A DNA stretch of 64,000 bases from Parcubacteria group bacterium LiPW_15 (GCA_007375645.1 VMER01000001.1:273211-337210), one strand, 5' to 3'; counted from the first letter of the stretch, positions 8,530-30,368 are shown. A program made the numbers and translations. Notes: generated by a model not told the origin, from the sequence alone.

Positions 8530-8556
8530 GTTGTTTCTTATTATAGATTATCTTAT

Positions 8557-12572: not shown

Positions 12573-14306
12573 TTAATCCTGCATTTCCTCCACATTTTCG
12601 GACATATAACGCTTCATTTTCTCGAGATTATCCCGCATCCGCTTGAGATAAAATTCGATTTCTTTGGCCTCAGACTCGTTTATCTTTTCGTCGCTGTAGT
12701 CGTCCAGCATTTTGTCTATGTCCTTTCGGAGTGAATTGAAAATAACGGAAATGTCCCGCTGGGCTATGACCACCTTCCTCCCCCGCTGTTCCTTGGCCAG
12801 TTTTTGCGTAAAATATCCGGCGAAGAAGCCGCCGATCAAAAGAAGCAAAAGAAAGACCGCCAATGTTCCCGAAGTTATTTCCAATCCGAAAATAATAAAG
12901 AGCGGTCTGGGGCGTACGCTAAAATCCGTTTTGATCGGAAAACTCGTAGCGCCGCGCGCGTCTTTGGCCAAGATTTCCAAATAATAGGCTCCCGCCTTTC
13001 GGGGTAGGTCAAAAGTAGCGCTCCAGTTTCCATTGGCATCCGGAATCGGATCCGCGTTCGCAATAAGGTCCCCGTTTTTACCCTCCATGGAGATAGACGG
13101 CGTTGTCCCCGTCGCCGCCGAACCGTTTATCTGAAGCGGACCTTCACCCAAATATGTGTCTTTGGTTATAAAGGTCACGGTTGGTCCGGCTATCGGCACC
13201 ACGTTCAAAGTAATATTATTCTCGGCCGCGTTCCCCGCTTTATCGATCGCCCGCACCAAAACGGTGTGCTCACCCGGCGCCTGAACGGGCAGCGTGTAAG
13301 AAGTCGATGTGGATACGAACAGTTCCTTGCCGTCAACGCGTATCTCGTAATGATCTATACCCGAAAGCGCGTCTTGTGTTTCGTAAAATATTTTTGGAGT
13401 CGGATTATCGCTCGACACATTATCCGCCTTAAGTTTAAACGGCAAAGGTGAGGCGGTATCGATAGATATTCCGTAATACGCGGCCGGCCCCCAGCCCTTG
13501 AGATTTTGGAATTGTACTCGCGCGTACCAAATTCCGTCATCCAAAACGCCCAGATCTTTTCCGTTAACAAGCTCCCGTTCCGGCGTGCCGGTTTCGGATG
13601 TTTTTGCGCGCACGACCCGAGCGGAAACATCCGTAATATCCGCCGGAACATCCCAGAAAACGACGGTGTCCCCAACCTGGCTATACCATTTGGTTTCATC
13701 CGGATACAAAGGAATCCTGAGTTTCGGTGCCGCCGGTAAACCGGTAGCCGGCGCTGGCGCCCTGCTGATCACCGCCGGTTGTTCCTGCGCGGATTGTCCC
13801 GACGGAGTTACGGAAACGGCTACACCGACGCCGATTGTTCCGTTTTGGATCCCGTCCAAAATGTTGGTGCCCTTCCCGTCGTTTGAAGTTATCGCGGCAT
13901 CGGAAGCGGATATCACGGCGGAGCCGGAGCCCACCGCTTTAAAATTAATGGTTAAAACCGAAAGGGCCGCTCCGGAAATGCCGGCGGTAGTCCCTCCGAT
14001 AAATTTTATTGTCCCATCGCTATTCGAAATATTCGGCCCGTCCAGCCAAAATCCGAATGCACTGTTTTTTGTGTCAAAACTTGTCGCCTGCAGTTTATCC
14101 GGCGGAAAGCTGATGGTCGCTTGCGCCGCGTTAATCGAGGCGCTGGAACTGTTGATTCTTACATACACCGTTATCTGATCCCCTCGACGGACCGTGCCGC
14201 TCGCCGGAATAATAGAAAGCGTCGCCGCGGACGCCGCTGAGACGCAAAACATCGCCCAAAGCGACAAAACTACAGTTACGCCAGTTAAATATTTTTTAAT
14301 TTTCAT
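12573..14306 (-). CDS. Secreted cell-surface protein with N-terminal cohesin-like domain, beta-rich repeats, a C-terminal TM anchor and a charged cytoplasmic tail
   Basis: Signal peptide; residues ~28-170 (TLSIIPASGTVRRGDQITVYVRI...ISFPPDKL...GTIKFIGGT...LSVLTINFKAVGSG) match the cohesin beta-sandwich pattern; TM IIFGLEITSGTLAVFLLLLLIGGFFAGYF near the C-terminus. Confidence 0.55.
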   Translation of the reverse strand: MKIKKYLTGVTVVLSLWAMFCVSAASAATLSIIPASGTVRRGDQITVYVRINSSSASINAAQATISFPPDKLQATSFDTKNSAFGFWLDGPNISNSDGTIKFIGGTTAGISGAALSVLTINFKAVGSGSAVISASDAAITSNDGKGTNILDGIQNGTIGVGVAVSVTPSGQSAQEQPAVISRAPAPATGLPAAPKLRIPLYPDETKWYSQVGDTVVFWDVPADITDVSARVVRAKTSETGTPERELVNGKDLGVLDDGIWYARVQFQNLKGWGPAAYYGISIDTASPLPFKLKADNVSSDNPTPKIFYETQDALSGIDHYEIRVDGKELFVSTSTSYTLPVQAPGEHTVLVRAIDKAGNAAENNITLNVVPIAGPTVTFITKDTYLGEGPLQINGSAATGTTPSISMEGKNGDLIANADPIPDANGNWSATFDLPRKAGAYYLEILAKDARGATSFPIKTDFSVRPRPLFIIFGLEITSGTLAVFLLLLLIGGFFAGYFTQKLAKEQRGRKVVIAQRDISVIFNSLRKDIDKMLDDYSDEKINESEAKEIEFYLKRMRDNLEKMKRYMSENVEEMQD

Positions 14307-14354
14307 TTTATTTAGTTATCAAGAATATATGGTTATTATAGCAGACGGCCTTTT

Positions 14355-17225
14355 TTATTGGGAATTTCTTGCTTGCTGGAATGCGTTTAGAAATATGCTG
14401 AAATCTATGATGTCTATTTTGCCGTCGCGATTAAAATCGATGGTCCCCCGCGTTTTCTTGTCCTCGGTGCGCCATCGGGAAAGAAAAATACTCCAATCCG
14501 AAATAGTTGCCGATTGATCCCCGTTCAGATCAACAACGGATTTCGCTTCTGTTGTGAGATTGAAGGTTTTTTGAAGTGATGGATCGCTTGTTTTTCCGGA
14601 AAATATTTCTTTGGCGTAAACCGAATGGGAGCCCAATGAAAGCCCCGTACTCGTCGCCGCAAAAGTATAATATCCGGAAGAATCCGGTTTCGTACTGCCA
14701 ACCGTCTTCCCGTCGACAAATAAACTGACTGTCGCTCCGGGAATGGCGTAACCATTCAAAAATATCGGACTTTTGCTCCCGATCACGCTCGAATCAAGCA
14801 CCAATGTTGGCGGGAGAATTATGTCTTTGATCGTCCAATCGACGCCTGCGACCGCAAGCTGAGCAAAAGAAATTATCGCCGTGGAATTATTGTTCTTATC
14901 TTTGGCTTGTATGGCAAAGAAATAATCTGCCTGCAAAAAGTTTTCGAGCGAGACTTCAAAACTTCCGTTATTGGCGATAGTTACGGTTTTGAAAGGAACG
15001 CTTGCGTATACTCCGCTCACGGAACTCTTGGTAAAAATTTGTATGTCCGCGCCGGGATACGCGTAACCGTAAAAATGAGCATTGGCCGGACCGTAGCCGC
15101 TTAGATTCACCGGCGGCGCGGAAGAACTCGGCTGCGGACTGGTTCCGGAAGAAACCGTAACCGTGGCGACCGCAGTATCGGAACCGGCGACATTGGTACA
15201 AGTGAGCGTATAAGCGCTGGTCGTTTGCGGCTGAGTCGTGGTCGCGGTTCCGATTATGCCGCCCGAACCGATAGTCGCGTTACCGGGGTCGGTGATCGCG
15301 CAAGTGGTAGCCGCGCCGATAGCGCTCCAGGTGAAAGTTATCGTTTGTGACTCGCCGATCGATACGCTCGAAGGAGACGCATCGAAACTCTGTATGGTCG
15401 GAGCAACCGGGGCGCTTGATACCGTAAGCGTTTGCGCATTGGAAGTTCCTCCGCCCGGAGTCGGATTAAATACCGTTATCGATCTGGTTCCGGCCGAAGA
15501 AATATCTGAGGCGAGAATGTTGGCCGAAAGCTGGGTTGAAGATGCAAATGTCGTCGTTCGATTTGATCCCCCTATCCGCACAACAGAATCACCATCGAAT
15601 CCGGAACCGTTTACGATTAAAGAGAAACCGGATCCGCCTGCGGCAACCGTAGTCGGAGAAATAGAGGTTGTAACCGGCGCGGCATGTGTCGGCGAAAAAG
15701 GCGAACCGGACGGAACAACGCCTGCCGCATAATTCCCGCTCGTATCACGGCTCAAGAGTTTGTAATGATAGTTCGTGCCTCCGGTAAGTCCGGAGTCTGT
15801 GCATCCCGTGCCCGGAGACGCGGTTACGCAAGCGACGATTGAGGCTCCGATTGAATTGCCGACGGTGTATACGGTTCCCTCGACAGGCGTATCGGTTACT
15901 GCGCTTGTGGAACGCAAGGCGACAATGCTGTGTAGATCGGCGTCTCCCGGATTTGTCCAAGAAAGAGAAACTTGGGCGACACCCGCCGTGCCGGAAGCTC
16001 CGGTCACATCCGCTGGCGACTGATTATCAACGGTAATTGTGGCCGAAGAAGCGTCGGATCCCGCCTGCGAATTGGTGCCGGTAAAAGAAGTTACTGTGCC
16101 GGTTACGGAATAAGCGGAACCGGGAACTGCGGGCATATTGGCGTGGCTTTTCGGAGTGATTCTCACCTTGAACTGAACCGGGCTTGTGGAAACCGGGATG
16201 CCGCAACCGGAAAGCGCCACCGTATTTGAAACCGGATCGTTCTCTGAACAATAAGTCGTTGCTCCGTCGTTTGAAGTGATTGCGACTGAAGACAAACTGC
16301 TTGTGGTGTTTGCTCCGAGCGTTACGGTCGCGGCAGTCACGGTATCGCTGCCGTCCGTAGTTTGGAGAGTGAAAGAGTCCAGATCCGTAGCCGAAGCTCC
16401 GGGAGCGATCGTGGCGTTAGAAGGATCTGTGCCGTTGGCAAGCGTGGTAACCGGCGGCTGAAGCGAAATTGTCATCATACCTTTTACGGTGGCAGTAGCA
16501 AAAGTTACAGTCGTTGTTGAGTAAGCGCCCGCTGTCGCTTTTTGGCCATCGAAGACCGTTAGGCCTCCGCCGTCACCGGTACCGGTTTCCGCGTTAACTC
16601 GCACAGCAGAGATGTTTGCCAAACTGGAATTCACAACCGTAGCAATCGGAGTGTCGGCAGCAGTCGCGCCGGCCCCGACAATCACAACAAGACGATCCGG
16701 ACCGATTGTGGTTGCTCCCGCAATATCCCCGGACACATCACTCGTGGCGTCGACAGAACCAGATGTAACGTCCCATGGATTTCCCGTGGTTACGACACCT
16801 CTATAAGCGCAAATGGATCCACCTTGGTGGTTTCCGGAATCGGAAGTTGTGGGATCGCCTTGAGTGCCGTTATACCGCGACCAAAAAACGGTAAGCGTGA
16901 CTGCGCCACTGGGAGACTGCGGAGAACCGGAAACTTCGGTCCACGTTCCCCCGTTTCCGTTAGCGATAGTGATTGCTTGACCCGATGTTTCTAAAAATAG
17001 CAGTAGAATATCATTGGCCGCGATACCTGCAGGTAAGACTGGTGTGATTGCTGCAGCGGCGCCCGCGGCGGCACCGCAGCCGACAAAGGTTGGGATTGCG
17101 GCGTTGGCGGACGGTATCCCCCAGATCAGACCGGAAAATCCGCCGGTCAAAAAGACTGCGCAAAAAAATACAACAAATAGAAATTTGCTGGTTGAGCTAG
17201 TCGAATTTTTTTTCTCTTTTTTCAT
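14355..17225 (-). CDS. Large secreted Thr/Ser/Gly-rich surface protein with C-terminal type-I dockerin (two Ca-binding repeats)
   Basis: C-terminal DLNGDQSATISD and DFNRDGKIDIID match the dockerin DxNxDGxIxxxD loops. Start chosen at MKKEKK (17225) just before the signal peptide; the ORF track extends to 17297. Confidence 0.65.
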   Translation of the reverse strand: MKKEKKNSTSSTSKFLFVVFFCAVFLTGGFSGLIWGIPSANAAIPTFVGCGAAAGAAAAITPVLPAGIAANDILLLFLETSGQAITIANGNGGTWTEVSGSPQSPSGAVTLTVFWSRYNGTQGDPTTSDSGNHQGGSICAYRGVVTTGNPWDVTSGSVDATSDVSGDIAGATTIGPDRLVVIVGAGATAADTPIATVVNSSLANISAVRVNAETGTGDGGGLTVFDGQKATAGAYSTTTVTFATATVKGMMTISLQPPVTTLANGTDPSNATIAPGASATDLDSFTLQTTDGSDTVTAATVTLGANTTSSLSSVAITSNDGATTYCSENDPVSNTVALSGCGIPVSTSPVQFKVRITPKSHANMPAVPGSAYSVTGTVTSFTGTNSQAGSDASSATITVDNQSPADVTGASGTAGVAQVSLSWTNPGDADLHSIVALRSTSAVTDTPVEGTVYTVGNSIGASIVACVTASPGTGCTDSGLTGGTNYHYKLLSRDTSGNYAAGVVPSGSPFSPTHAAPVTTSISPTTVAAGGSGFSLIVNGSGFDGDSVVRIGGSNRTTTFASSTQLSANILASDISSAGTRSITVFNPTPGGGTSNAQTLTVSSAPVAPTIQSFDASPSSVSIGESQTITFTWSAIGAATTCAITDPGNATIGSGGIIGTATTTQPQTTSAYTLTCTNVAGSDTAVATVTVSSGTSPQPSSSAPPVNLSGYGPANAHFYGYAYPGADIQIFTKSSVSGVYASVPFKTVTIANNGSFEVSLENFLQADYFFAIQAKDKNNNSTAIISFAQLAVAGVDWTIKDIILPPTLVLDSSVIGSKSPIFLNGYAIPGATVSLFVDGKTVGSTKPDSSGYYTFAATSTGLSLGSHSVYAKEIFSGKTSDPSLQKTFNLTTEAKSVVDLNGDQSATISDWSIFLSRWRTEDKKTRGTIDFNRDGKIDIIDFSIFLNAFQQARNSQ

Positions 17226-17406
17226 GGAACAGCGTTTTAACGCTCCGATACGCTTTATTCGACTTCCGCGAGATGCCGCCCGGCTGGTGCAATCCACACG
17301 CCAGCAATCTATTGATAGATATAGTATAGCAAAGACAAAAGAATTGTGTGGGATAACAAAAACCCGCCCGACGCGAATGCGTTTAGGGCGGGTTTTTGAT
17401 TGTGAG

Positions 17407-18366: not shown

Positions 18367-18843
18367 GCCAAATTTGTTTTAATTTTTGGCCTCTCCTTTG
18401 TAGAAAATTATCTACAAATTTGAGCACCCGGTGAGATAGGCGAAGCCGCCATCTCACGGGGTTTTTATTAGCTAGGCTCGCTATCTCGCCAAGATAATAA
18501 AAAAAACGACCTTTTATTCCAAAAGTCGCACAAGTGCGAGCATGTAGTCCCGTTAGAAGTAGTTTGTTTTAACAAACGTAAATTCTAATGGGAACCCTCG
18601 GCAGGTCTTAGGCCCTTTCGGGTTCGCCTGCTGTCTTTGGAACGTGAGAACAGTATAGCTTAAATATGACTTAAGTCAACCCTATTTCGCCCGTATTTTC
18701 TTAAACACTCCAGGGAGGATGACCGTCCGAAAAGGGGCCGCCGCAAGCATAAAAAGCTTGGTTTTTCTATTGAAAAATTTTTATGCCGAGGCCGCAGACA
18801 CGCCCGTTCGCCGGAAGCGGGCGATGGCGTCCCTTTAGGGCGG

Positions 18844-19074
18844 TTATCCGACCACCTCCGCGCTATAGCCGAGTTTCTTTATTATCTCCACTATTTTCTC
18901 GGGCGAAACCAGTTTTTCGTCAAAAGTCACTTCGGCCTCTGATTTCGCAAAGCTTGCCTTCACTTTTTTTACTCCCGGAGTGTCTTCCAACTCCCCCTCT
19001 ATATTCATAATGCAGCTCGTACAATGAAGCCCCTGGAGATTTAATTTAATTGTTTTGATATTTTCTTCTGTCAT
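18844..19074 (-). CDS. copZ: Copper chaperone CopZ (heavy-metal-associated domain)
   Basis: GLHCTSC = GMxCxxC metal-binding motif; 76 aa. Confidence 0.85.
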   Translation of the reverse strand: MTEENIKTIKLNLQGLHCTSCIMNIEGELEDTPGVKKVKASFAKSEAEVTFDEKLVSPEKIVEIIKKLGYSAEVVG

Positions 19075-19088
19075 ATTTTTTGGTTTTT

Positions 19089-19116
19089 CTATCCACCATT
19101 CTCTATCTACTATCTA
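19089..19116. repeat. Four tandem heptamers CTATC(C/T)A immediately upstream of copZ
   Basis: ctatcca ccattct ctatcta ctatcta. Confidence 0.65.
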
Positions 19117-19131
19117 CCGGCAATTATTGTC

Positions 19132-20196
19132 TTACTGGACAATAATTGTGCCTCTATACATCCCCATCGAACACATAAAAGGAATTGTGGTCGGTTTGTC
19201 GGGCGCGGTAAATTCCAAAGTTTGCGAAGTCCCTGGCGGCACGGAAGCGCGGAGATTCAAGCTCGGAATAACAAAGCTCTGCGCACAGCTATAGCCATCG
19301 TCATTTTTTAAAGTTATTTTAACTTTCTCCCCCGCTCCGACGTAAAGCGTCTTCGGACTATAACCATAAGAATTAATAGCAATGGTGGGATTATTGTTGG
19401 TTTCGTTATTGAAACCAGACCCATTATTTGCAGGTCCGTAGTTATCACCCGGTACAGGTTCCACAAAATAATTCGGCTTATTTAAAGATTCCCAGACGCT
19501 CACAAAGTTCGGCACTCCCGCCAAGGCCAGCGCTCCATTCAAACTGAATAGCGCCAGAAAGATTATTGCCACCGCCGCGAACTTATAGAACTTTTTCTGC
19601 ATCGAGTCTCCCATCTTGGTCACGAAATATCCCAGGATGAAAAACAAGGGCGTGGTTCCCAAAATGAAGGCAAAGAGGATTGCCATTCCGGAAAATGCTT
19701 TACCGGAAGAGATCGCGAGAGCCATCATCGCCTGCGTCGTCCCGCACGGGATAAATATGGTAAGCGCTCCCAAGATTGCCGGAGCGAAGATGGATTTTGA
19801 CTTGGCCTGGCTCCTCAGCCTTCGGGTCAAGAACCTGGGCGGTTGGATAATAAAATAGCGGAAAATGGGATGCAGGTTTAACAAATTTCCCGCAGTGCCC
19901 AGCATGAAGATGATTACCGCAAATTGTAAAGCCACGCTTGCGCCAACCGACAACTCCAAGGCCGATCCCAAAAGTCCCAGAAGAAGTCCTAATATAGTGT
20001 AAGCAACGAGCTTCGCGCTCAAGAACCAGAGGATAGGCATGGCCCCGGGGCGTTTTTTCTCGCCGTGTCCATCCCCTTCCTGCTGTTCCTCTTCCTCCTG
20101 CGCCATCGCGGTGGCCAAAAGCCCGCCTTGTACGGCAAGGCAGGTCAATCCCCCGGTTAGAAGTCCTGTTCCAAAAATTACAAATAGGTTTGGCAT
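19132..20196 (-). CDS. Membrane protein with a DsbD_2-like Cys-containing TM domain plus C-terminal cupredoxin-like domain (probable copper handling)
   Basis: TM Cys motifs GGLTCLAVQGG and IFIPCGTTQAMM; Glu/His-rich loop; C-terminal LYVGAGEKVKITLKNDDG...FMCSMGMYRGTIIV resembles cupredoxin_1. Confidence 0.55.
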   Translation of the reverse strand: MPNLFVIFGTGLLTGGLTCLAVQGGLLATAMAQEEEEQQEGDGHGEKKRPGAMPILWFLSAKLVAYTILGLLLGLLGSALELSVGASVALQFAVIIFMLGTAGNLLNLHPIFRYFIIQPPRFLTRRLRSQAKSKSIFAPAILGALTIFIPCGTTQAMMALAISSGKAFSGMAILFAFILGTTPLFFILGYFVTKMGDSMQKKFYKFAAVAIIFLALFSLNGALALAGVPNFVSVWESLNKPNYFVEPVPGDNYGPANNGSGFNNETNNNPTIAINSYGYSPKTLYVGAGEKVKITLKNDDGYSCAQSFVIPSLNLRASVPPGTSQTLEFTAPDKPTTIPFMCSMGMYRGTIIVQ

Positions 20197-20219
20197 TGGA
20201 TTAGCTTAATTGTTTTTTA

Positions 20220-21314
20220 TTATTTTAAATTAAATGAGGTTTTGGCTTGTTTGCTTCTAGAGTAAAACGGATGGCCGGTCTTTAATGCTTTCATCATTTT
20301 CTCGGTATCGGATGGCAGATCTATCAAAAATCTTTTTGTCACACCCAGCATGTATTTCTCGTGATCCCGATATGTTCTCGCCTTCCCGTAGGACGCTGAA
20401 AGACCCTTAAAACCGTAACCCTTTCCAAAAACTTTTTTGAATATCCAAATTGCCCGCTCCATATGATAATCGGACGTTATGAGCCAAATCTTTCCCTTGA
20501 CCTTCATTTTCTCGACTATCTGCTTTGAAAATACTGCGTTGCCGATCGTATCTTTGGATTTTTCTTCCAAGATAATATTTTTCTCCGATATTCCGTTCTT
20601 CAGCAGATAATTTCTCATTGCCCCGGCCTCGGTTATGGGCGGTTTCTTTTTTAGCGAACCGTTAAACCCTCCGCTCAAGATAACCTCAAAAGGAGAAAGT
20701 TTACCCGAAACTTTCAAAAATAGATCCAACCGTTCTTTGCCGCCTCTGATCGGTTTGCCGGCATGGCTGACCCCTCCTCCGAGAACTATTACGATATTCT
20801 TCGGACCGCTGTTTTTATTAACATCCACATAGTATCGCCTTATCATCCTGCCCTTGTTCATTAATTTGTCTTTGAGAACTCCACCGTTGGCCTCGATTAT
20901 TTTCCAAGAACCGACGTTGTCGTCATCGCAAGTGATAAGCGCCTTTTTAATACCCATCTTTTTTATCTTCTTTAAGGCCAGCGCCAGGATCTTTGTTCCG
21001 TATCCTCTTTTGCGCTTCGAAGGACGGATTCCGTAGCCGACATGCCCGCCCTCTTTTGTAAGCTTTGCGTTTAGCCTGTGCCGAATAGTGGTCTCCCCGA
21101 TAAACCGATTCCCATCCATCATCCAGTAGCTCGTGCACGGCACGTACCCTTTTTTGAGATATTTGTTGCTGTACATTTTAAGAAGATAGGTCTTAAAATC
21201 CCGCTCCATTTCTTGGATTCTCTTCTCTGTCGTCTCGCCTTTCCGCGTGGATTCCCGCTCGCTCGCGAGATATTCTTTCTTATATTTAATTGTCGGCTTG
21301 ATCAGGCGAAGCAT
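20220..21314 (-). CDS. Fusion protein: N-terminal GNAT acetyltransferase domain + C-terminal DUF218 (YdcF/ElyC-like) domain
   Basis: GNAT: HVGYGIRPSKRKRGYGTKILALAL. DUF218: IVIVLGGG...ILSGG...SKDTIGNAVFS...LITSDYHMERA. Confidence 0.65.
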   Translation of the reverse strand: MLRLIKPTIKYKKEYLASERESTRKGETTEKRIQEMERDFKTYLLKMYSNKYLKKGYVPCTSYWMMDGNRFIGETTIRHRLNAKLTKEGGHVGYGIRPSKRKRGYGTKILALALKKIKKMGIKKALITCDDDNVGSWKIIEANGGVLKDKLMNKGRMIRRYYVDVNKNSGPKNIVIVLGGGVSHAGKPIRGGKERLDLFLKVSGKLSPFEVILSGGFNGSLKKKPPITEAGAMRNYLLKNGISEKNIILEEKSKDTIGNAVFSKQIVEKMKVKGKIWLITSDYHMERAIWIFKKVFGKGYGFKGLSASYGKARTYRDHEKYMLGVTKRFLIDLPSDTEKMMKALKTGHPFYSRSKQAKTSFNLK

Positions 21315-21316
21315 AT

Positions 21317-23656
21317 TTATAGTTTTATTCTTTTTAGCCTTAGCGAATTGGCGACCACAGAGATAGAACTCATGGCCATCGCGGCGGAGGCGAATATGGG
21401 GCTTAAGAGTATCTCGAAAAATGGATACAAAGCGCCCATCGCCACGGGGATAAGGACTATATTATAACCGAACGCCCAGAAAAGATTGCCTCTAATTATT
21501 CCCATCGTCCGGCGGGAAAGCTTGATAACATTCGCGACCGAATCCAAATTCTTATTAACCAAGGTGATATTCGCCGCTTCAATTGCTACATCCGTACCCG
21601 TACCCATCGCGAGACCTACGTTCGCGGCCGCGAGAGCCGGAGCGTCGTTTATTCCGTCCCCTACCATCGCCACAATCTTTCCTTCTGCCTGAAGTTTTTT
21701 AATTATCGCTTCTTTTTCTGTGGGCAGCACTTCCGAAATTATCCGTTCTATCCCAAGCTCTTTGCCGATAGCTTCTGCCGTGCGTTTATTGTCTCCGGTA
21801 AGCATCACAGTCTCTACTCCCATTTGTCGGAGTTTTTCTATCGCCTCCTTCGCGCTCGCTTTCGGCCGGTCGGAAACCGCAACAAGTCCTATAAGAGATT
21901 TATTGAGCGCCAAATACATCACGGTTTTTCCTCCTCGTTCCAATTTATCCGCAATTTCGGTTGCCGAGATGGACTCCTTGTCCGCCGATGAAACGGAAAC
22001 CCCCAGTTCATCCATTAACTTTTTATTCCCGAAATATATATTCCTCCCTCCATGAGTCGCCTGAACGCCTTTCCCCGGAATAGCCCTGAATCCCTCAAGC
22101 CGCGAGAGAGCAAAACTTTTGGGTAACGTATTTTCAGCATGTTTCACTATCGCCTCGGCCAAGGAATGCTCTGAACCCTTCTCGATCGCGGCGGCCAATT
22201 CCAAAACCTGATTCTCAGTCATCCCAAACCCGACTATATCCGTGACCTCGGGCTTCCCTTCGGTAAGTGTGCCGGTCTTATCAAAAACGATTGCGTTTAC
22301 TTTGTGCGCGGTCTCCAGGCTCTCCGCGTCTTTAATTAAGATTCCATGTTCCGCACCAAGCCCCGTGCCCACCATGATTGCCGTAGGCGTCGCGAGTCCC
22401 ATAGCGCAAGGACAAGCGATGATAAGGACTGCCACGGCGTTTAAAATGGCGAGCAAGAGCCCCGCCTGCCCTGAGCTTGTCGAAGGGCCCAGGTCATACC
22501 ACAAAACGAACGTTAATATAGAGAGCATTATGACTATCGGCACGAAATACGAGGAAATTGTGTCGGCAATGCGCTGAATCGGCGCCTTGCTCCCCTGCGC
22601 TTCCTCTACCAGTTTAATAATTTGCGCGAGCATGGTATCCGCGCCAATCTTCTCCGCGCGAAAAAGAAAGCTGCCGGTTTTATTTACGGTCGCACCGATG
22701 ACTTTACTTCCCACGGATTTGTCCGAAGGAATGCTCTCGCCCGTGACCATAGATTCATCAATAGATGATTCCCCTTCTATAATTACGCCGTCCACAGGGA
22801 TCTTTTCGCCGGGACGCACGCGGATAATATCGCCGATCTTTACTTGTTCCACCGGTATGTCTGTTTCTTGTGGAACAACCCCATGGGAACCGAAAGGTTT
22901 CCCATCGGGGTAATACAAAACTCTCGCCGTCTTTGCCTGAAGCCCGATAAGCTTCTTTATAGCTTCCGAAGTTCCCGCTTTGGCCCGAGCCTCGAAATAA
23001 CGCCCAAGGAGTATGAGACCGATAACTAAGGTGGAAACATCGAAATACGGCATTGCTTCCACTCCGGCAGAAGTTATGATGCCTGGAAAAAATACCGCAA
23101 AAACGGAATACAAAAAGGCCACGCTTGTGCCGATGGCCACAAGTGAGTCCATATTTGCACTTCTGTGTCTTAGCGCCCTGCCCGTAGCCTTATAGAATCC
23201 CCAAGCCGCCCAAAACTGCACGGGAATGGCCAGCGCCAACTGCACATAAACATTTTTTAATATCTCCGGCGCGAAATTCACAAGCCCCGGAAAACTACCC
23301 CAAAGAATGAGTGCGCCGGCAACCAAGGCAACGCAGGTGCGGTTCAATAGATCTCTTTGCGCCTTTTGTTTTTCTTTTTTAATATCCCCTTCGTGCATGC
23401 TGGCGTCTTCGAGCATCGCCTCGTAGCCGACGTTCGAAACAGCCGACAAAATATCCGTGTCTTTGACCTTAAGGGCGTCATACGAAACCGTGGCTTTCTC
23501 GGTCGCCAAGTTTACGACAGCCGAGTTTACCCCGGGCACCTTTCTAAGCGACCGCTCGATAGTAGAGACGCACGAAGCGCAATGCATGCCTTTTATCGGA
23601 TATGTTTTCCGCGCCAGCGCCCCGTTAGAAGTTTTATCGGTCATCGGTTTATCCAT
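21317..23656 (-). CDS. copA: Copper-translocating P1B-type ATPase
   Basis: N-terminal HMA GMHCASC; CPC motif [11 protein letters not shown]; DKTGTLT phosphorylation site; GDGINDAP. Confidence 0.92.
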
Positions 23657-23735
23657 TTGTCTTATCTAATTGAAAAATAATTGATTAATATATTTGCCCC
23701 GCCCCTAAACTTCTAAGCGGGGTATCGGGACCAAC

Positions 23736-23858
23736 CTACATATTCATATGTTCCTCCGCGGTCATCTCCGGCATCGCATCCTTCTTTTTTCCGAAAAAGA
23801 ACCAGGCGACAAACGCCATAAGTATCACTCCTACGATTGTTACGATAATTTTATCCAT
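23736..23858 (-). CDS. Possible 40-aa single-TM peptide (MDKIIVTIVGVILMAFVAWFFFGKKKDAMPEMTAEEHMNM) between csoR and copA
   Basis: Unlisted short ORF, ATG start, hydrophobic N-terminus and Met/His/Glu-rich tail; weak SD. Confidence 0.25.
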   Translation of the reverse strand: MDKIIVTIVGVILMAFVAWFFFGKKKDAMPEMTAEEHMNM

Positions 23859-23865
23859 GTATTTC

Positions 23866-23900
23866 TACCTACTACATACTACTCACTACTCACTACCTAC
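23866..23900. repeat. Five tandem heptamers CTAC(C/A/T)(T/C)A spanning the csoR stop / downstream spacer
   Basis: ctaccta ctacata ctactca ctactca ctaccta. Confidence 0.65.
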
Positions 23901-24165
23901 TGTTTTTAAGTATCTCCGCCAACTCTTTTACCGCTTTCTCCCCTTCTCCTCTTTTAATCATACCAGCCGCGCAAGTTTTTAAATGATTCTCCAAAAGCAC
24001 CTCGTCGGTCGCCCGGAGGGCCTTCTGCACCGCCTGGGACTGCAAAATAACGTCTATGCAGTAGGCGCCGGATTCCACCATATCTATAACCTTCTTCAGA
24101 TGCCCCAAAGAGATCTTATATCTGTGCTCAATCCTCTCTTTGCTGGTCGCGGGTTTAAATGTCAT
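23893..24165 (-). CDS. csoR: CsoR/RcnR-family copper-sensing transcriptional repressor
   Basis: GHLKKV...YCIDVILQSQAV..AL matches the CsoR C-H-C metal site region. Start set at MTFKP (24165); the ORF-track extension to 24294 is rejected. Confidence 0.75.
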   Translation of the reverse strand: MTFKPATSKERIEHRYKISLGHLKKVIDMVESGAYCIDVILQSQAVQKALRATDEVLLENHLKTCAAGMIKRGEGEKAVKELAEILKNSR

Positions 24166-24175
24166 AAAACCAGTA

Positions 24176-24196
24176 TATCCCCCCATGGGGGATATG
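24176..24196. promoter_or_regulatory. Putative CsoR operator: G/C-tract pseudo-palindrome ATATCCCCCC-ATG-GGGGATAT just upstream of csoR
   Basis: Seen directly; known CsoR operators are ATACCC..GGGTAT-type G-tract palindromes. Confidence 0.55.
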
Positions 24197-24207
24197 TAAA
24201 GCGCCTG

Positions 24208-24321
24208 CTTTGTGCATATCTTTGATACGCAAACAAAGCCAGTGCCGAGTACTCGCGGCGTCCCGTTTTGTGCAAATCTTTGATTCGCAAACAAGAACGC
24301 AATCCCGAGTATTCCCTCGGG
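24208..24321. repeat. Imperfect tandem direct repeat, 2 x ~57 bp (tttgtgca.atctttgat.cgcaaacaa...cgagta.tc), in the csoR leader
   Basis: Copy 1 at 24208-24265, copy 2 at 24266-24321, about 75% identical. Confidence 0.7.
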
Positions 24322-24484: not shown

Positions 24485-24988
24485 TTATTCTCTAATCGAA
24501 ATTAGGCGCCCTTGCTCCGGTTCAAGTTCAATACGAAAAAGATATTGGTAGCCATAACGTTTTTTCATGTCAATCAACTTTAGTTCATCTATTCTCCTAT
24601 TCTTTCGATTCCAGTGACCCTTCACCTCAATAGCCACCAAATTATTTTCTGGCGAATTTCTTTCCCCGCGATCTGGTGTCCGCCGGTGGATGATTATATC
24701 TGGGAATATACTATCCCCACCAGAATTCTTCTTTGTAACTTGACCGTCTCGGTTATATTCGATATCAACATTCCAAGTTTTAAAATATGGTTTTAGATAG
24801 TTGGTTAGATGTGCGGAAATGGATTCCTCTTCGGCCTCAACCCTTATCAAGCCAAAATCATCTTTGTATAAGTTTGATAATGCCTGCGTTATGCACATCG
24901 CTATCTCTGCCTCGGTCATAGGATGAATACAAAATATTATTTTATTTAAAATTTCTGCGTAGCAGGTACAAATTCCGTCCAAAAACAA
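24485..24988 (-). CDS. Small PD-(D/E)xK (restriction-endonuclease-fold) nuclease; candidate effector of the ATPase operon
   Basis: Motif ...VDIEYNRDG...SIFPDIIIHRR(x19)LVAIEVKGHW = E ... PD ... EVK. 14 nt downstream of the ATPase gene. TTG start at 24988 (alternative ATG at 24919). Confidence 0.55.
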   Translation of the reverse strand: MFLDGICTCYAEILNKIIFCIHPMTEAEIAMCITQALSNLYKDDFGLIRVEAEEESISAHLTNYLKPYFKTWNVDIEYNRDGQVTKKNSGGDSIFPDIIIHRRTPDRGERNSPENNLVAIEVKGHWNRKNRRIDELKLIDMKKRYGYQYLFRIELEPEQGRLISIRE

Positions 24989-25002
24989 AGTTGAAATTAT
25001 AT

Positions 25003-26760
25003 TTATATCTCTCTATATTCCTGCCTAAGAAATGGGGCTTCCCTAGTAAACGTAGCCCTAACCTTCTTGCGATAATCAAAGTCAAAATCTTTTACCGACG
25101 AATCAAACTCGTCTTTGTTTATTGTTACGATGTATTGGAATTTAGGTTTCTTAAGTGAAGCAGCATTAAGATAATTTAAGGCTCTACTCATATCATCCTT
25201 GCCCACAGAAGCAAAAATGTTGTCGTGGATTAGGAAGCCAAGGTGTCTCTTGGAAGTATAAGTATTAAGCATCAGGAGAACGTCGTAAATAAAAGTCTTA
25301 ATGCGATTTATGCCAGAACTTCCATCTAGTTTTATCCTGTAATCAAAATTTATGAATTCTTTGCCTTTTTCATTAACTTCGATTTGGAAATGGTATGCCT
25401 TATTGCCAGCAATAAACTCGTGGATCTGTTCCAAGTCTTTTCTGAAAGATTCTATTTTTATCGATAGGCCAATGAGCTGCGCATCTAATGCCTCTATAGC
25501 AGCTTGTCTCTCGCGCATAATTCTTTTATGCTCCCCTTTCTTGGTAGTAAGCATATTATATGCAGAAGAAAGCTTATCCAGCTCGCTGTTTTTTTCTCGG
25601 AAAATGATAATTGCACTTTTCAGCTCTTCTATTCTTTCGGGAGCTGTTGTTTTCGAATATATCTTCGCGATCTTTTCATCGAGTTCGTCTATGCGTATTT
25701 CTAGCTCATTTATCTCTTTATTCAAATCCTGAAGCTTTTCCGTCATCAGACCATTCTGAAATGCCTGAACTTCAAGCTGGAAAGCTTGAACTTCTTCAAA
25801 TGACTTGTTGACCAAATCTCCCAAGCCCTTTTTAAACTGGTTGTATATAGCTTTTATTTCGGCAGAATTTACTTTTTCAACCCTGGGCAAACTTTTAATC
25901 TGTCTTACAACATATTCTCTCGCAACCTTTTCGGAAACCAGCCTTCTAATTTCTTCTTCGAGATTTTTTAATTCTTGTTGTGTCTGAAGCACCGCTTCTC
26001 CTGGTTGTAATTTTTTAATCGAAAAATCCAACTTTTCGACCCTATCCCTCAGCTCGTTGAGATACACTTCAATATCTTTGGGGTCGACATTCTCTTGGCG
26101 AATGTCATCGCGCAAAGCCTTCATCACCTCGGTTATACTATCCAACTTTTTGTCAAAGCTCTTTATCTTGTCCACCAAGGCTAGATCAAAATCAAAGAAA
26201 TATAGATGCGGTTTAATTGCGTCCCCAAAATATCCCTTAGCCGACTCCGTGTAGGGGTAAAGTATATTGTTATACGAAGTTCTTTCGTCTCTGATAGCCA
26301 AAGATAACAAGCTGCGCAAGGAGGGTCTCTCCTTTATGGCTGAGTCCCTAAAGATTAGATCTTCCACATACTCTTTCGCATCTTCAGCTTTCTCGAACTC
26401 TTTTTCTTCCTGCGCATCAAACACAAAGACGTTATTTTTCTCACTAGTGCTCCTTTTTATTGTGAGAGCCTTGAGGGACTTATCGGTTTCTATCTCTAGT
26501 TCCAAGCATAGGAAAATTTGGGGGGATAAAACAGCGGAAGGAATTCTATCCACCCTGCTATTTTTTAGATCTTTGAACAAGCAAAAGTTAATCATTTCAA
26601 TGAGCATGGATTTCCCAACGCCATTCATCTTTTTTGCCTCTATCTGGTTCTCGTTCTTCTCAGATTCCTCCCCGATAATGAAATTCAAACCAGTAGAAAA
26701 TTCTATTGGCTGAATGTCGTTAAAGGTGGGTTCGAAGTAGAACTTTTTCAGGGTTATCAT
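25003..26760 (-). CDS. Coiled-coil ABC/SMC-like (RecF/Rad50-type) ATPase, 585 aa
   Basis: N-terminal GLNFIIGE...KMNGVGKSMLIEMINF (Walker A); ~350-aa heptad-rich Glu/Lys/Leu coiled-coil middle; C-terminal DGSSGINRIK (signature-like) and LGFLIHDNIF (Walker B). ATG overlaps the upstream gene stop (ATGA). Confidence 0.75.
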   Translation of the reverse strand: MITLKKFYFEPTFNDIQPIEFSTGLNFIIGEESEKNENQIEAKKMNGVGKSMLIEMINFCLFKDLKNSRVDRIPSAVLSPQIFLCLELEIETDKSLKALTIKRSTSEKNNVFVFDAQEEKEFEKAEDAKEYVEDLIFRDSAIKERPSLRSLLSLAIRDERTSYNNILYPYTESAKGYFGDAIKPHLYFFDFDLALVDKIKSFDKKLDSITEVMKALRDDIRQENVDPKDIEVYLNELRDRVEKLDFSIKKLQPGEAVLQTQQELKNLEEEIRRLVSEKVAREYVVRQIKSLPRVEKVNSAEIKAIYNQFKKGLGDLVNKSFEEVQAFQLEVQAFQNGLMTEKLQDLNKEINELEIRIDELDEKIAKIYSKTTAPERIEELKSAIIIFREKNSELDKLSSAYNMLTTKKGEHKRIMRERQAAIEALDAQLIGLSIKIESFRKDLEQIHEFIAGNKAYHFQIEVNEKGKEFINFDYRIKLDGSSGINRIKTFIYDVLLMLNTYTSKRHLGFLIHDNIFASVGKDDMSRALNYLNAASLKKPKFQYIVTINKDEFDSSVKDFDFDYRKKVRATFTREAPFLRQEYREI

Positions 26761-27002
26761 TTTTTCTTTAAAATATGAGGGCTTTTAAACAGTATGAGGT
26801 CGTTCATGAATAAAAACGTAACAGCATAAAGCATGGTTCTAAAGTTAAGTCCTCCGAGCTGCTTCCTTATTGTGGAATACAAATCAAAAATCGTAATGCT
26901 ATGCTTTTTATTAAGTAATTTCAATATCAAAAAACCCGTATACACGCTAGACGAGCGCACATCTTGTTCGGAAGATATCAGCAGGTTATTCTCGAGTTTC
27001 AT
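26757..27002 (-). CDS. 81-aa hypothetical protein, translationally coupled (ATGA overlaps on both sides)
   Basis: ORF with 4-nt overlaps at both ends; no recognisable motif. Confidence 0.5.
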   Translation of the reverse strand: MKLENNLLISSEQDVRSSSVYTGFLILKLLNKKHSITIFDLYSTIRKQLGGLNFRTMLYAVTFLFMNDLILFKSPHILKKK

Positions 27003-27535
27003 AGTTCAAGCGGGTTTGGGAAAATATTACACTTTACCAACTCATTAAAAAGATAAAATCGTACCGCCGCTTCGTCGTAATCTTCTTTTATCGGTAAGGC
27101 TTCAAAATGCTCAATCAGCTTCGCAGTTAGCTTGCTTAACGCAGTTATCGGGTTGTTCTCGGATTCTTTTAATACTTCTTCGCTTCTGCGTCTTAAGGTA
27201 ATAGCGATTTTATCGGCGGTAGTTTCCGAAATATCACTTTGTTTTAGCGCCTCTTGATAAAATGATCCATAGTGAGGGAGAAGATCGCTATATTCTTTTT
27301 TTAAGGCTTCTTTAAACTCTGAAAAATTATTTAACTTTTTGTCGATATCTTTTTCGCTCACTTCGCGGCTATCAGCAACCCCTTCCGACAGGACGGAGAG
27401 CACAGAGATGACTTTCATAATAGAGAGCATCTCCGTTGAGGCGTTCTGGGCAACCTTGCCTAAATAAACATTGCCGACAATATTCAACGCCCTATCTCCA
27501 CTACTTTTCTGAACATTTTTAATTTCCTCGCTCAT
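26999..27535 (-). CDS. 178-aa all-alpha-helical acidic protein (candidate middle/adaptor component)
   Basis: No TM; Glu/Lys-rich helical composition; its start overlaps the upstream gene by 17 nt. Confidence 0.5.
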   Translation of the reverse strand: MSEEIKNVQKSSGDRALNIVGNVYLGKVAQNASTEMLSIMKVISVLSVLSEGVADSREVSEKDIDKKLNNFSEFKEALKKEYSDLLPHYGSFYQEALKQSDISETTADKIAITLRRRSEEVLKESENNPITALSKLTAKLIEHFEALPIKEDYDEAAVRFYLFNELVKCNIFPNPLEL

Positions 27536-27713
27536 GGGAGTCGCTTTTTACAGAGTTTTCAGAAATTACATTTAAAGCGCTGTCTCCCTTAGACTGTTGT
27601 TTATTGACCTGCTTATTCTTCTGGCTCCTGACTGTGATGTGAGCGGTAATGCCCCCGCTAATTGCTCCGACAATCACGCTGATAATTAGATTCCAAATAT
27701 CCAAATTTTGCAT
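27519..27713 (-). CDS. 64-aa single-TM peptide, first gene of the operon
   Basis: MQNLDIWNLIISVIVGAISGGITAHI TM followed by a polar basic tail; ATG start. Confidence 0.4.
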   Translation of the reverse strand: MQNLDIWNLIISVIVGAISGGITAHITVRSQKNKQVNKQQSKGDSALNVISENSVKSDSHERGN

Positions 27714-27730
27714 ACATTAATTAAAGTCCA

Positions 27731-27748
27731 AATAGACTATGAAGTCTA
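27731..27748. promoter_or_regulatory. Perfect inverted repeat ATAGACT-atga-AGTCTAT in the divergent promoter region between the operon and the 27862 gene (candidate operator)
   Basis: Seen directly; 7-bp arms, 4-bp spacer. Confidence 0.4.
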
Positions 27749-27861
27749 TGGTGTCTAATACACATCACTGCTCGATATGCGCACCGGAGCTATTTACGCA
27801 CCGCCAAAAACATTATTTTTGGGAGTTTGCCTCAACGTCTCTTTGGGTGTAATTTTTAGGC

Positions 27862-28539
27862 ATGCTCAATAAACTCTGGGCAAAAGAAAAGGTGCTCATC
27901 AGCCTTTCTGGTCTCATTGCCGCCCTAAGCGCGTTGTTTTTAGATATCCCAGTCCCCCAGATCGAAGATGCGAAAATTGCCCTAGCAAATGTACAATTTT
28001 TCTGGTTAGTGCTTTTGACAATCAGCCTAACTAAACTCTTTTTCAGCCTTATAGATTTGACAATCAAGACCGAAAAAGAAATTAAGAAAAAATATGATCT
28101 CCCCATTGGGGTTTTCTCGATGACGTTAGCCACTATTCTTCTTATGGTGCTTGGTAATTTTTGGAAATATATTTTTGACCTGTATGGAAAATCTTTTTGG
28201 GGATTCATGGACATCGTCTTTCCAGAGCTAGTTGCCGTGTCATGCGTTCTTCTGCTTCTTTTCGTAGAGAAAAAAAGAAGTAGATTCACTAGATTTTCCT
28301 ACATCATCGTCCTCTCGTTTGTACTTGGCCTGCTTATAGGCCTAGCAGGAATTTATATTCAGGAGGCATTAATTGGATATTTTTATTTTTATTGGCTCAA
28401 TCTGATATTCCCCGGCGCAACCATAATCGTAGCTCTGGGATTAATGATATTTTCTTACCTGAAGAAAAAACCTTTATTTTCAGCTCTCCCAAAAAGTTCG
28501 GCCTACGGCAAAACACTCACTGCCCAGCAAAACACATAA
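27862..28539 (+). CDS. Polytopic membrane protein (~6 TM), function unknown, divergent from the ATPase operon
   Basis: 225 aa, hydrophobic segments throughout; AT-rich. Confidence 0.5.
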   Translation: MLNKLWAKEKVLISLSGLIAALSALFLDIPVPQIEDAKIALANVQFFWLVLLTISLTKLFFSLIDLTIKTEKEIKKKYDLPIGVFSMTLATILLMVLGNFWKYIFDLYGKSFWGFMDIVFPELVAVSCVLLLLFVEKKRSRFTRFSYIIVLSFVLGLLIGLAGIYIQEALIGYFYFYWLNLIFPGATIIVALGLMIFSYLKKKPLFSALPKSSAYGKTLTAQQNT

Positions 28540-29162: not shown

Positions 29163-30368
29163 TTACTCGTACCTCAACGCTTCCGCAGGCTCCATTTTGG
29201 CCGCTTGGCGGGCAGGTAAAAGTCCTGCGAAAATCCCGGTCATAAAGGTCACGAAAAGGATGACTGCGAAGCCGTAGAAGTCTAAGGAAGCAAAGGAGAA
29301 GAGCCCCTGGGTGCCAAGCTTTCCGGCAAAGAGCCCGATAAGGAAGGAGATAAAGACTCCGAGCAAGATTCCCATTAGTCCCCCGGTCAAACCGATTATC
29401 CCCGATTCCATGAGGAACAAGGAAAGCACATTTTCGCTTGAGGCGCCGATGGCCTTTAATATCCCGATCTGCTTGGTCCGCTCTAAAACCGAGGTATACA
29501 TTGTGTTCATTATGCCCACCGCGCCGACCACCAAAGATATGAGGGCTATGACTATCAAAAATATTTCGACGAGCGACATTACGCTCCCGATAAGCTGGCT
29601 GGTTTTCGCGGGAGTAAGAACCGAGAAGTCCCTGACTGTTTCCTGTTTGCCAAGCTCAAATTTTATCTGTCGGGCCAAGAGATCGAGATTCACGCCCGGG
29701 TTGGCCTTAAGTATCGCCGAGATCACGGCCCGCTCGCTCCCCGAGATCATCCAATAATTATTGAGGGATATATAGAACGAGTTGTCATCATCCTGCGCCC
29801 CTATCGGGTTCAACACGCCCACCACGCGCATTCTTTTTGATCCGACGATAAGCTCATCCCCCGTCCGGACGGGTGTTTTAAAAGTTTTGTTCGCCGCTAT
29901 ATCGCCGAGCACCATTTCGTTCGTGTCTTCGTTCTGCGGCCAGACGCCGGAGGCCAGCTTCACGCCCTGCGATTCTTCAAAGATCGGCCGCATGCCGGAC
30001 CAGGGAGCGGCATGTATCGTCGCGCCTTGTTTTTCCCCGCGGAATTCAATATTCATGATCGCCACATCGGTCGGCATGACGTATTTCACGCCCGAGATCC
30101 TTTCTAGATCAAAGAGATCGTCCACTTTGAATTTTTGTCCGCCCATAAGGCTCGCCATAGGATTTGTTTCCTTGCCCGGGAATATAAAGATGAGATCCGA
30201 GCCGAAACTCTGGAGGAGTCCCGAAATCGCCTTCTCTATTCCGGAACTCAAAGAAAAAATAATGACCACGAGCATTATGCCGATAACTATTCCCAAAATC
30301 GTAAGCCAGCTCCGAAGCGAGCGGTAGCGGATGCTTTTTAGAGTTAAGAGGAGAAAACTTTTAAACAT
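29163..30368 (-). CDS. ABC transporter permease, MacB/FtsX family
   Basis: N-terminal TM, large periplasmic domain, C-terminal FtsX-type 3-TM bundle; overlaps the ATPase gene. Confidence 0.85.
   Translation of the reverse strand: MFKSFLLLTLKSIRYRSLRSWLTILGIVIGIMLVVIIFSLSSGIEKAISGLLQSFGSDLIFIFPGKETNPMASLMGGQKFKVDDLFDLERISGVKYVMPTDVAIMNIEFRGEKQGATIHAAPWSGMRPIFEESQGVKLASGVWPQNEDTNEMVLGDIAANKTFKTPVRTGDELIVGSKRMRVVGVLNPIGAQDDDNSFYISLNNYWMISGSERAVISAILKANPGVNLDLLARQIKFELGKQETVRDFSVLTPAKTSQLIGSVMSLVEIFLIVIALISLVVGAVGIMNTMYTSVLERTKQIGILKAIGASSENVLSLFLMESGIIGLTGGLMGILLGVFISFLIGLFAGKLGTQGLFSFASLDFYGFAVILFVTFMTGIFAGLLPARQAAKMEPAEALRYE

Follow-up and report, generated by a model that had tools for sequence, protein, structure and literature searches.

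Does the set of copper-related genes found in an uncultured groundwater bacterium form one operon under the copper-sensing repressor CsoR, and what might its less familiar members do? The locus lies in a 64,000-nt stretch of DNA (GCA_007375645.1, VMER01000001.1:273211-337210; hereafter the window) from Parcubacteria group bacterium LiPW_15, a metagenome-assembled genome of the Candidate Phyla Radiation (CPR). A protein identical to one encoded in the window carries that name, and a contig of the Logan collection (L001) is 100% identical to the window across 13 kb. For most of its parts the locus is ordinary, a member of the CsoR-CopA-CopZ class with a CPR-specific variant, and we think it likely that it is a copper-inducible detoxification operon in which CsoR acts at a single promoter and the parts act as proposed below. 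What sets the system apart is an operator variant, a probably leaderless csoR, a microprotein derived from the cupredoxin chaperone CupA, and a CPR-wide protein that joins a DsbD_2 membrane domain to a CupA-like domain.

Six genes make up the cluster, all on the minus strand and listed here from the promoter-proximal end:

23893-24165, minus strand: csoR, 90 aa, predicted Cu(I)-sensing repressor (PF02583, 62.6 bits against a cut-off of 22.8, E 4.6e-17)
23736-23858, minus strand: 40-aa microprotein with one transmembrane (TM) helix plus KKK, predicted to face the cytoplasm, and a Met/His tail (matched by no Pfam or NCBIfam model)
21317-23656, minus strand: copA, P1B-1 Cu(I)-exporting ATPase with one HMA domain (Pfam; TIGR01511, 610 bits against a cut-off of 397)
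20220-21314, minus strand: fusion of a GNAT (Acetyltransf_3) domain and a DUF218/YdcF-like domain (PF13302, 49.3 bits; PF02698, 87.3 bits)
19132-20196, minus strand: DsbD_2 plus Cupredoxin_1 membrane protein, 354 aa (Pfam; PF13386, E 2.9e-30)
18844-19074, minus strand: copZ, 76-aa HMA copper chaperone with an HCTSC motif (PF00403, NCBIfam)

The open reading frame (ORF) listing and the Pfam and NCBIfam scans agree with the gene order and domains that an earlier note on this DNA had proposed. CopA has the Pfam domains HMA, E1-E2_ATPase and Hydrolase, and its translation contains the motifs GMHCASC (CASC), CPC, DKTGT and MSS. From csoR to copZ the intergenic gaps measure 34, 79, 2, 23 and 57 nt. 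Scans of the operon detected no internal consensus terminator above chance level and no further high-scoring minus-strand promoter. These short gaps, together with the two negative scans, lead us to infer a single transcript running from csoR to copZ. We set the locus against 80 CPR loci (1.1 Mb in total) surveyed for synteny and motifs. Across these genomes copA was adjacent in 42 of 65 cases and csoR was present in 42 of 49. The closest species genome, L014, encodes a CsoR that is 94% identical to the one in the window.

Control of the operon appears to be vested in one short region immediately upstream of csoR, in which a promoter and a palindrome overlap:

24172-24200, minus strand: promoter-like site, -35 TTTACA (24200-24195), 17-nt spacer, -10 TATACT; 10 of 12 consensus matches
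24175-24195, no strand assigned: predicted CsoR operator, the 21-nt pseudo-palindrome ATATCCCCCCATGGGGGATAT, that is ATATCCCC-N5-GGGGATAT; unique match in the window

The G-tract pseudo-palindrome upstream of csoR was thus correctly recognized in the earlier note, with its coordinates displaced by a single base (24176-24196). It occupies the promoter spacer between -35 and -10 and overlaps the -10, and the pattern ATATCCCC-N5-GGGGATAT matches the 64 kb only once, even when three mismatches are tolerated. Six relatives with the operator (L002, L004, L005, L006, L007 and L014), which were reached through homologues of neighbouring genes, have the same hexamers at the same spacing, the hexamers reading TTKMCA and TATNNT. 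In all six the operator is 21 nt long and the ATATCCCC and GGGGATAT arms are constant, while its central bases differ (AT, ATA, GT, GTC, CCTA). A relaxed form of the pattern, applied to the 80 CPR loci, found 29 distinct operator-like sites, 26 of them no more than 76 nt upstream of a csoR gene and one more beside csoR on the opposite strand. The protein is equally recognizable as a CsoR. Its best solved relative is that of Mycobacterium tuberculosis (2HH7, E 9e-16), with Cys36, His61 and Cys65 aligned, and counting on the sequence finds the whole x-C-H-C fingerprint and second shell present (Y35, C36, H61, C65, E81).

A terminator scan also lists the palindrome as terminator-like, with a 9-pair stem and a 3-nt loop followed by ACTGGTTTTA, so that it might end the transcript of the upstream gene and not be an operator at all, an alternative that the earlier note had itself raised. 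However, relatives with other upstream genes keep the palindrome between the conserved -35 and -10. Its loop varies whereas the arms and total length are fixed, the T run that follows has interruptions and is not shared by L005 or L002, and the motif tracks csoR in 27 of the 29 distinct sites. A terminator is therefore very unlikely. The operator reading, in turn, is strongly supported by the length and position kept in the relatives, by the sites preceding csoR across CPR, and by the fit to the Streptomyces type-2 CsoR consensus, which is the 21-nt ATATACCCCTNAGGGGTATAT with an N5 centre (PMC3902906) and is equal to the window operator in length and tracts. One difference counts against a straightforward equivalence: the window operator reads ATC/GAT, whereas the studied Streptomyces CsoR requires TAC/GTA (PMC3902906), and details of recognition would therefore differ. 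The proposal of an extended copper homeostasis operon with a CsoR operator is nonetheless supported by the domains, the footprinted promoter-operator, the published consensus and the CsoR ligands. Because the csoR ATG (24165) begins 7 nt past the -10, the csoR mRNA is probably leaderless.

Several small repetitive elements were seen around csoR. A hairpin element of ~50 nt, GGTCCCGCTTAGAGCTCGCGGAAACTAGAAGTTTCCTACCTCTAACGGGA, which resembles a miniature inverted-repeat transposable element or a repetitive extragenic palindrome, is inserted in the 3' end of csoR in L006 (4508-4560) and L007 (~1123-1173), where it gives csoR a new C-terminus and strands the old 3' coding end downstream. L006 has a second copy of the GGTCCCGCTTAGAGCTCGCGGAAACTAGAAGTTTCCTACCTCTAACGGGA type in the csoR leader (~4845-4895), and related hairpins of the form GATTCC...GGAATGACA fill intergenic DNA in L004 and L007. 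In the window, ~5 copies of a 7-nt tandem repeat (TAGGTAG/TAGTGAG) lie on the minus strand at 23865-23901, spanning the csoR stop and the spacer before the peptide gene, and C/A-rich mirror versions of this repeat (ACTACCTACCACTCAC) precede the DsbD_2 gene in L002, L004 and L014. In L005, a perfect DnaA-box, TTATCCACA, at 4300-4315 just upstream of the -35 of the csoR promoter is probably there by chance.

Two further regions concern the extent of the regulated unit, one in front of copA and one beyond copZ:

23697-23724, minus strand: GC hairpin with an 8-bp stem between the peptide gene and copA (folding z = -0.99)
18492-18679, minus strand: rplJL promoter-like site (TTGACT-16-TATACT) and L10 leader, the 3' limit of the copper operon (RF00557)

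The first had been noted as a second GC inverted repeat before copA. Its 8-bp stem is real, and features of an operator are missing: it does not have the ATAT-C4-N5-G4-ATAT geometry of a second CsoR box, the segment folds no better than shuffled sequences, and no T run follows. A comparable hairpin stands at the same place in L014, and the spacer is not conserved in L004, L006 or L007. The second region begins with a conserved promoter-like site downstream of copZ (18679-18652). The L10 leader matches RF00557 with 37.3 bits (E 1.8e-4), below the gathering score of 44. This promoter-leader region is 92-100% conserved in relatives, and the terminal hairpin and T run of the leader (18529-18496) are 97-100% identical in L002, L003, L004 and L014. 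Having its own promoter and L10 leader, rplJL is read as a unit separate from the copper operon; a point against the operon reading is that no clear terminator was found after copZ. Directly downstream of rplL, where rpoB and rpoC are usually expected, the minus strand of the window encodes very large cohesin and dockerin proteins (12573-17297).

The earlier note had considered the membrane-tethered cupredoxin an atypical member of the operon. The synteny survey reverses that view, and this protein emerges as core, widespread and the most conserved partner of the cluster across CPR. It has more than 4,000 homologues, with relatives in at least 238 species genomes, almost all of them Patescibacteria. 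The copZ gene lies directly downstream in 76 of the 80 loci, and in some loci the two genes form a pair with neither copA nor csoR nearby. The protein consists of a six-TM CcdA-like domain, an Asn/Gly/Pro linker and a C-terminal CupA-like cupredoxin domain whose best match is CupA (2MRY/4F2E), both by sequence (E 1.3e-5) and by fold (template modelling score 0.80, root-mean-square deviation 1.2 Å). Six residues are invariant in 34 homologues: C19 in TM1, C151 in TM4, and C304, C342, M344 and M346, the last four being the Cys...Cys-x-Met-x-Met ligands of the CupA type. The AlphaFold2 model (mean predicted local distance difference test, pLDDT, 73) displays the TM helices, and a fold search with it returned cupredoxin matches only, with no structural match for the membrane domain. 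The searchable literature contains no description of the fusion or of the CPR cluster.

How this protein is oriented, and what passes through it, can be argued from its sequence. The loops between TM3 and TM4 and between TM5 and TM6 are strongly positive, which by the positive-inside rule places the N- and C-termini outside, and some homologues possess an extra N-terminal TM helix that is consistent with the same orientation. We infer that the cupredoxin domain faces outward, and we propose that its Cu(I) site would be served by a CcdA-like thiol relay or by a metal relay. Three points weigh against this picture as far as it concerns an outward-facing, thiol-driven protein: the orientation depends on charge distribution only, the DsbD_2 domain does not have the classical PCxxP in TM1, and the window contains no thioredoxin partner. 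In view of the last two, a role as metal relay or permease seems about as likely as electron transfer. Among the 80 related loci, eight have a DsbA-like thioredoxin gene directly upstream of the DsbD_2 gene, which may hint at a thiol-redox link; the window operon has none.

Between csoR and copA, a position at which 23 of 49 CPR loci encode CupA-like TM proteins of 117-122 aa ending in ...CGMNMFHGK, the window has only a 40-aa ORF. This peptide shares 66% identity, over 29 aa, with the N-terminal anchor of the 117-aa TM-cupredoxin that L002 encodes upstream of copA. At this position, members of the window's clade have forms of 39-45 aa in which the anchor is joined to a KK(K) stop-transfer signal and a tail rich in Met, and orthologues of the peptide are always located between csoR and copA. 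A search of the full library with the peptide yielded 12 representative clusters with His- or Met-rich tails, several of them His-rich. The ORF could also be a decaying CupA-like remnant or a regulatory upstream ORF that yields no functional protein: its similarity to the 117-aa protein is confined to the anchor, it has lost the cupredoxin domain, and no family model covers it. Yet comparison with L004 counts 18 synonymous and 6 non-synonymous differences (ratio of non-synonymous to synonymous rates, pN/pS, 0.08). In addition, the tail, MPEM...HMNM (KKKDAMPEMTAEEHMNM), has an EEHMNM motif that is kept in several lineages, and short forms with His-rich tails exist independently. Decay or a purely regulatory role is accordingly an unlikely explanation, and the pattern of substitution indicates that the ORF is a real, selected microprotein gene. 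Most plausibly its product is a reduced, membrane-anchored copper ligand that faces the cytoplasm.

These parts suggest the following scheme. Apo-CsoR bound to the ATATCCCC-N5-GGGGATAT site in the promoter spacer would block RNA polymerase, and Cu(I) at Cys36/His61/Cys65 would release it, allowing synthesis of one transcript from csoR to copZ that is probably leaderless for csoR. CopZ and the 40-aa peptide would then gather cytoplasmic Cu(I), the peptide serving as a membrane anchor whose Met/His tail lies in the cytoplasm; it would be a shortened counterpart of the CupA-like chaperone that takes this position in other CPR genomes. CopA would export the Cu(I). Outside the membrane, the CupA-type Cys/Met site of the DsbD_2-cupredoxin protein would bind the exported copper, and the CcdA-like two-cysteine membrane domain would either keep that site reduced or relay copper to it, with CopZ as the likely cytoplasmic partner. 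More tentatively, we suggest a wider view, which we hold as a possibility short of even probability: that CPR bacteria conserve a two-gene outer copper branch, composed of CopZ and the CcdA-like protein with its outward CupA-type Cu(I) site, that relays electrons or copper, and that in one clade the CupA-like chaperone has been cut down to a 40-residue microprotein feeding CopA.

The GNAT-DUF218 gene does not fit readily into this scheme. Its description as an atypical operon member holds, as it is a 1.1-kb insertion absent from 80 related loci, none of which gave a GNAT or DUF218 match. In the closest relatives (L002, L003, L004, L005 and L014) the DsbD_2 gene comes immediately after copA, and window positions 21320-20205 have no counterpart. 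Among 5.8 billion proteins there is no full-length homologue; every match is confined to the GNAT half or the DUF218 half and extends over about half of the protein at most. Homologues of each half are found in unrelated, non-copper neighbourhoods, and those of one half are not adjacent to those of the other. The DUF218 half is modelled with pLDDT above 90 and its fold resembles that of Escherichia coli YdcF (3CA8), while the GNAT half is poorly modelled. The junction of copA and the DsbD_2 gene holds other cargo in 16 of 65 loci, including a BlaI/CopY-family repressor with a BlaR1-like protease, DsbA-like thioredoxins, an alpha/beta hydrolase and DUF305.

Might the fusion nevertheless be a functional, copper-induced part of the operon, for example by acetylating or otherwise modifying an envelope or surface component under copper stress? 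The gene is tightly packed, with 2 nt separating it from copA and 23 nt from the DsbD_2 gene, and has no promoter or terminator of its own. Given those gaps it is probably co-transcribed with the operon, and its GC content at third codon positions (GC3, 0.53) is native-like. The DUF218 family includes the envelope factor ElyC (a weak NCBIfam match, E 3.4e-4), and other CPR genomes carry different envelope or redox cargo at this position. The packing and composition speak against regarding the gene as a simple passenger, and in this lineage it may have a copper-induced role maintained by selection. On the other side are its absence from all 80 loci and the closest relatives, the lack of a full-length homologue, the non-copper and non-adjacent settings of the homologues of its halves, and the fact that neither domain has metal-binding features, the best fold match, YdcF, being an enzyme that uses S-adenosylmethionine. 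We consider such a functional role unlikely. Since the gene is absent from the 80 related loci, we take it for cargo and not for a copper function, and it is best read as a lineage-specific 1.1-kb passenger, not specific to copper, that entered a permissive slot where copA and the DsbD_2 gene meet. The suggestion of a copper-linked envelope function is set aside on the same evidence. Proximity is the sole evidence for a link between the GNAT domain, which is of the RimL-type family, and the nearby rplL, and we rejected it.

Other insertions were observed in related loci. At the junction of copA and the DsbD_2 gene, a module recurs in L017, L028, L050, L053-L055, L062, L066 and L068 that consists of a BlaI/CopY-family repressor (~126 aa), a BlaR1/M56-like membrane protease (~335 aa) and, often, a DsbA-like thioredoxin (~270 aa); it may act as a second sensory circuit within copper clusters. 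Two relatives have small inserted GIY-YIG genes in their clusters, L004 at the junction of the peptide gene and copA (2987-3256) and L002 at that of copZ and rplJ (8513-8803). The copper locus seems to be especially prone to small insertions.

There remains the DNA on the far side of the promoter, where a tandem repeat is found:

24204-24321, no strand assigned: two-copy direct repeat with units of 58-60 nt, upstream of the promoter and probably outside the operon

The earlier note had described a 2 x 57-bp imperfect tandem repeat in the leader. Two copies are indeed present, with a period of 58 nt. A 33-nt core (24204-24236 and 24262-24294) is 88% identical between the copies and is followed by a weaker 15-nt match (80% identical), whereas over the whole units 47 of 67 columns align, with indels (~70%). 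Tandem Repeats Finder did not call the 58-nt repeat, and the core is beyond chance (0 of 100 shuffles). Each unit combines a GC hairpin with the core hairpin GCGWATC-AAA-GATWTGC. Placement in the leader did not hold up: the proximal copy stops 4 nt from the -35, on its upstream side, in DNA common to no relative. When the operon is compared with relatives by BLAST, homology begins at window 24201-24208, that is, at the -35, nothing upstream is shared, and L014 has unrelated DNA at the position of the repeat. The core occurs nowhere else in the window, even with 3 mismatches, no inverted copy was found at the far end of the upstream island described below, and none turned up among 185,579 species genomes. 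A single metagenome contig matches a 21-mer of the core inside an ORF resembling etfB (electron-transfer-flavoprotein-like), which in so large a collection we judged to be chance and not a true copy. Searches of Rfam, made at gathering scores for the whole window and at E <= 1 for the leader region, gave nothing in the csoR leader and repeat region. A comparison of copy number between relatives, which the earlier note had envisaged, has nothing to compare, as the repeat is absent from all relatives and the only other contig with it, L001, is 100% identical and uninformative.

The units could still be a regulatory element, as their closeness to the -35 would allow: they might form a pair of sites bound by a second dimeric regulator, or act from upstream to activate or insulate the operon. 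Each core is an imperfect palindrome, and the two differences between copies within the core stem are complementary (T:A to A:T), so that the dyad is kept. The minus strand of the repeat also folds better than shuffled sequences (z = -4.2, against z = -2.1 for the plus strand). Because of the complementary stem changes and the minus-strand value, some constraint on the dyad is possible. However, DNA homology with every relative ends at the -35 and none has the motif, no other copies exist in the window or the species genomes and the lone metagenome match is probably chance. Moreover, only two copies and one covarying pair are available (a rough estimate gives p ~0.03), and the units lie at the junction with a low-GC defence island. 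A regulatory element seems improbable to us, and we read the 58-nt duplicated hairpin unit as lineage-specific DNA at the edge of the island, outside the ancestral copper system. Sigma-54, FNR/CRP and CopY boxes were also considered for the repeat and discarded by eye, as spacing and half-sites do not fit.

The island itself (24485-28500, minus strand) is directly upstream of the csoR promoter and has a GC content of 0.38-0.41 and a GC3 of 0.38-0.43. Its genes encode a PD-Lambda-3_A-like protein of 167 aa with a PD-(D/E)xK-like motif, a DUF2326/PDC-M68B/LmuB-like ABC ATPase (585 aa) and an MC6 small protein, and it looks like a defence system of the ABC-three-component type. Relatives carry other defence-like genes at this position, namely a KAP NTPase in L006 and a DpnI-like gene in L004. 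Farther upstream, at 29163-31230 on the minus strand, a MacB/FtsX-type permease adjoins an ABC ATPase with an N-terminal YHS domain (putatively metal-binding). Lying ~5 kb upstream of the copper operon, the pair may form a second transporter linked to metals.

Comparison with characterized systems places the operon among several better-known relatives. In the M. tuberculosis cso operon a small gene of unknown function follows csoR and a membrane protein follows the ATPase, and the window has the same arrangement. With this operon (csoR-rv0968-ctpV-rv0970), with csoR-copZA of Bacillus subtilis and with the CsoR of Streptomyces lividans and its type-2 operators, the window has in common a PF02583 repressor whose Cu(I) site is of the C-H-C type, a 21-nt pseudo-palindrome with G/C tracts that overlaps the promoter, and a P1B-1 ATPase and HMA chaperone under CsoR. 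It differs from them in its operator arms, ATC/GAT instead of TAC/GTA, in the probable lack of a csoR leader, and in the addition of the CPR-specific microprotein, the DsbD_2-cupredoxin protein and the inserted GNAT-DUF218 gene. A further comparison is with the Cu(I) chaperone CupA of Streptococcus pneumoniae (4F2E/2MRY), a cupredoxin anchored in the membrane. CupA has the same fold and the same Cys...Cys-x-Met-x-Met ligands as the C-terminal domain of the 354-aa protein, and resembles the one-TM plus cupredoxin proteins of 117-122 aa at the csoR-copA position of other CPR genomes. In contrast to CupA, which has a single N-terminal TM anchor and a cytoplasmic domain, the window domain comes after the six TM helices of DsbD_2 and has a predicted outward orientation, while the 40-aa peptide at the CupA position keeps the anchor and a Met/His tail without the cupredoxin domain. 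Additionally, the N-terminus of CopA in the window is an HMA and not a cupredoxin metal-binding domain, and the regulator is CsoR, not CopY.

The membrane domain invites comparison with DsbD/CcdA and with ScsB-ScsC ('suppressor of copper sensitivity'). Common to all are a six-TM core with one conserved Cys each in TM1 and TM4, a beta-sandwich extracytoplasmic domain with a Cys pair, and a link to copper tolerance; in the eight related loci mentioned above, the upstream DsbA-like thioredoxin gene extends the likeness. However, the window protein belongs to the DsbD_2 family (PF13386), with canonical DsbD_TM scoring 27.2 bits, just over the cut-off of 27.1. It has an invariant Gln and Met-Met beside the TM4 Cys in addition to lacking PCxxP, and unlike those systems it has no thioredoxin partner and carries as its appended domain a copper site, not a thioredoxin or Ig-like redox domain. 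The MerT-MerP mercury relay likewise combines membrane-embedded cysteines, a soft-metal-binding extracytoplasmic domain and an HMA protein, but the fold is different and the presumed direction is export or sequestration, not import, and this is a likeness without shown homology.

For the regulatory core no new idea is needed; the locus provides a clean, footprinted variant of the CsoR operator, with ATC/GAT arms, for an uncultivated phylum. Two false leads are removed, the 'envelope' idea for GNAT-DUF218 and the 'leader' repeat. CupA was described in a 2020 review as restricted to a few streptococci (PMC7558416). In CPR, by contrast, CupA-type sites are widespread and take two forms, an anchored protein that stands alone and a fusion to DsbD_2 that is almost always paired with copZ. 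A second uncharacterised part is a family of membrane microproteins, 36-45 residues long and with tails rich in Met or His, that occupies the chaperone position and is under purifying selection. This family and the DsbD_2-cupredoxin protein could reveal how exported copper is handled by bacteria that have minimal genomes and lack a periplasm.

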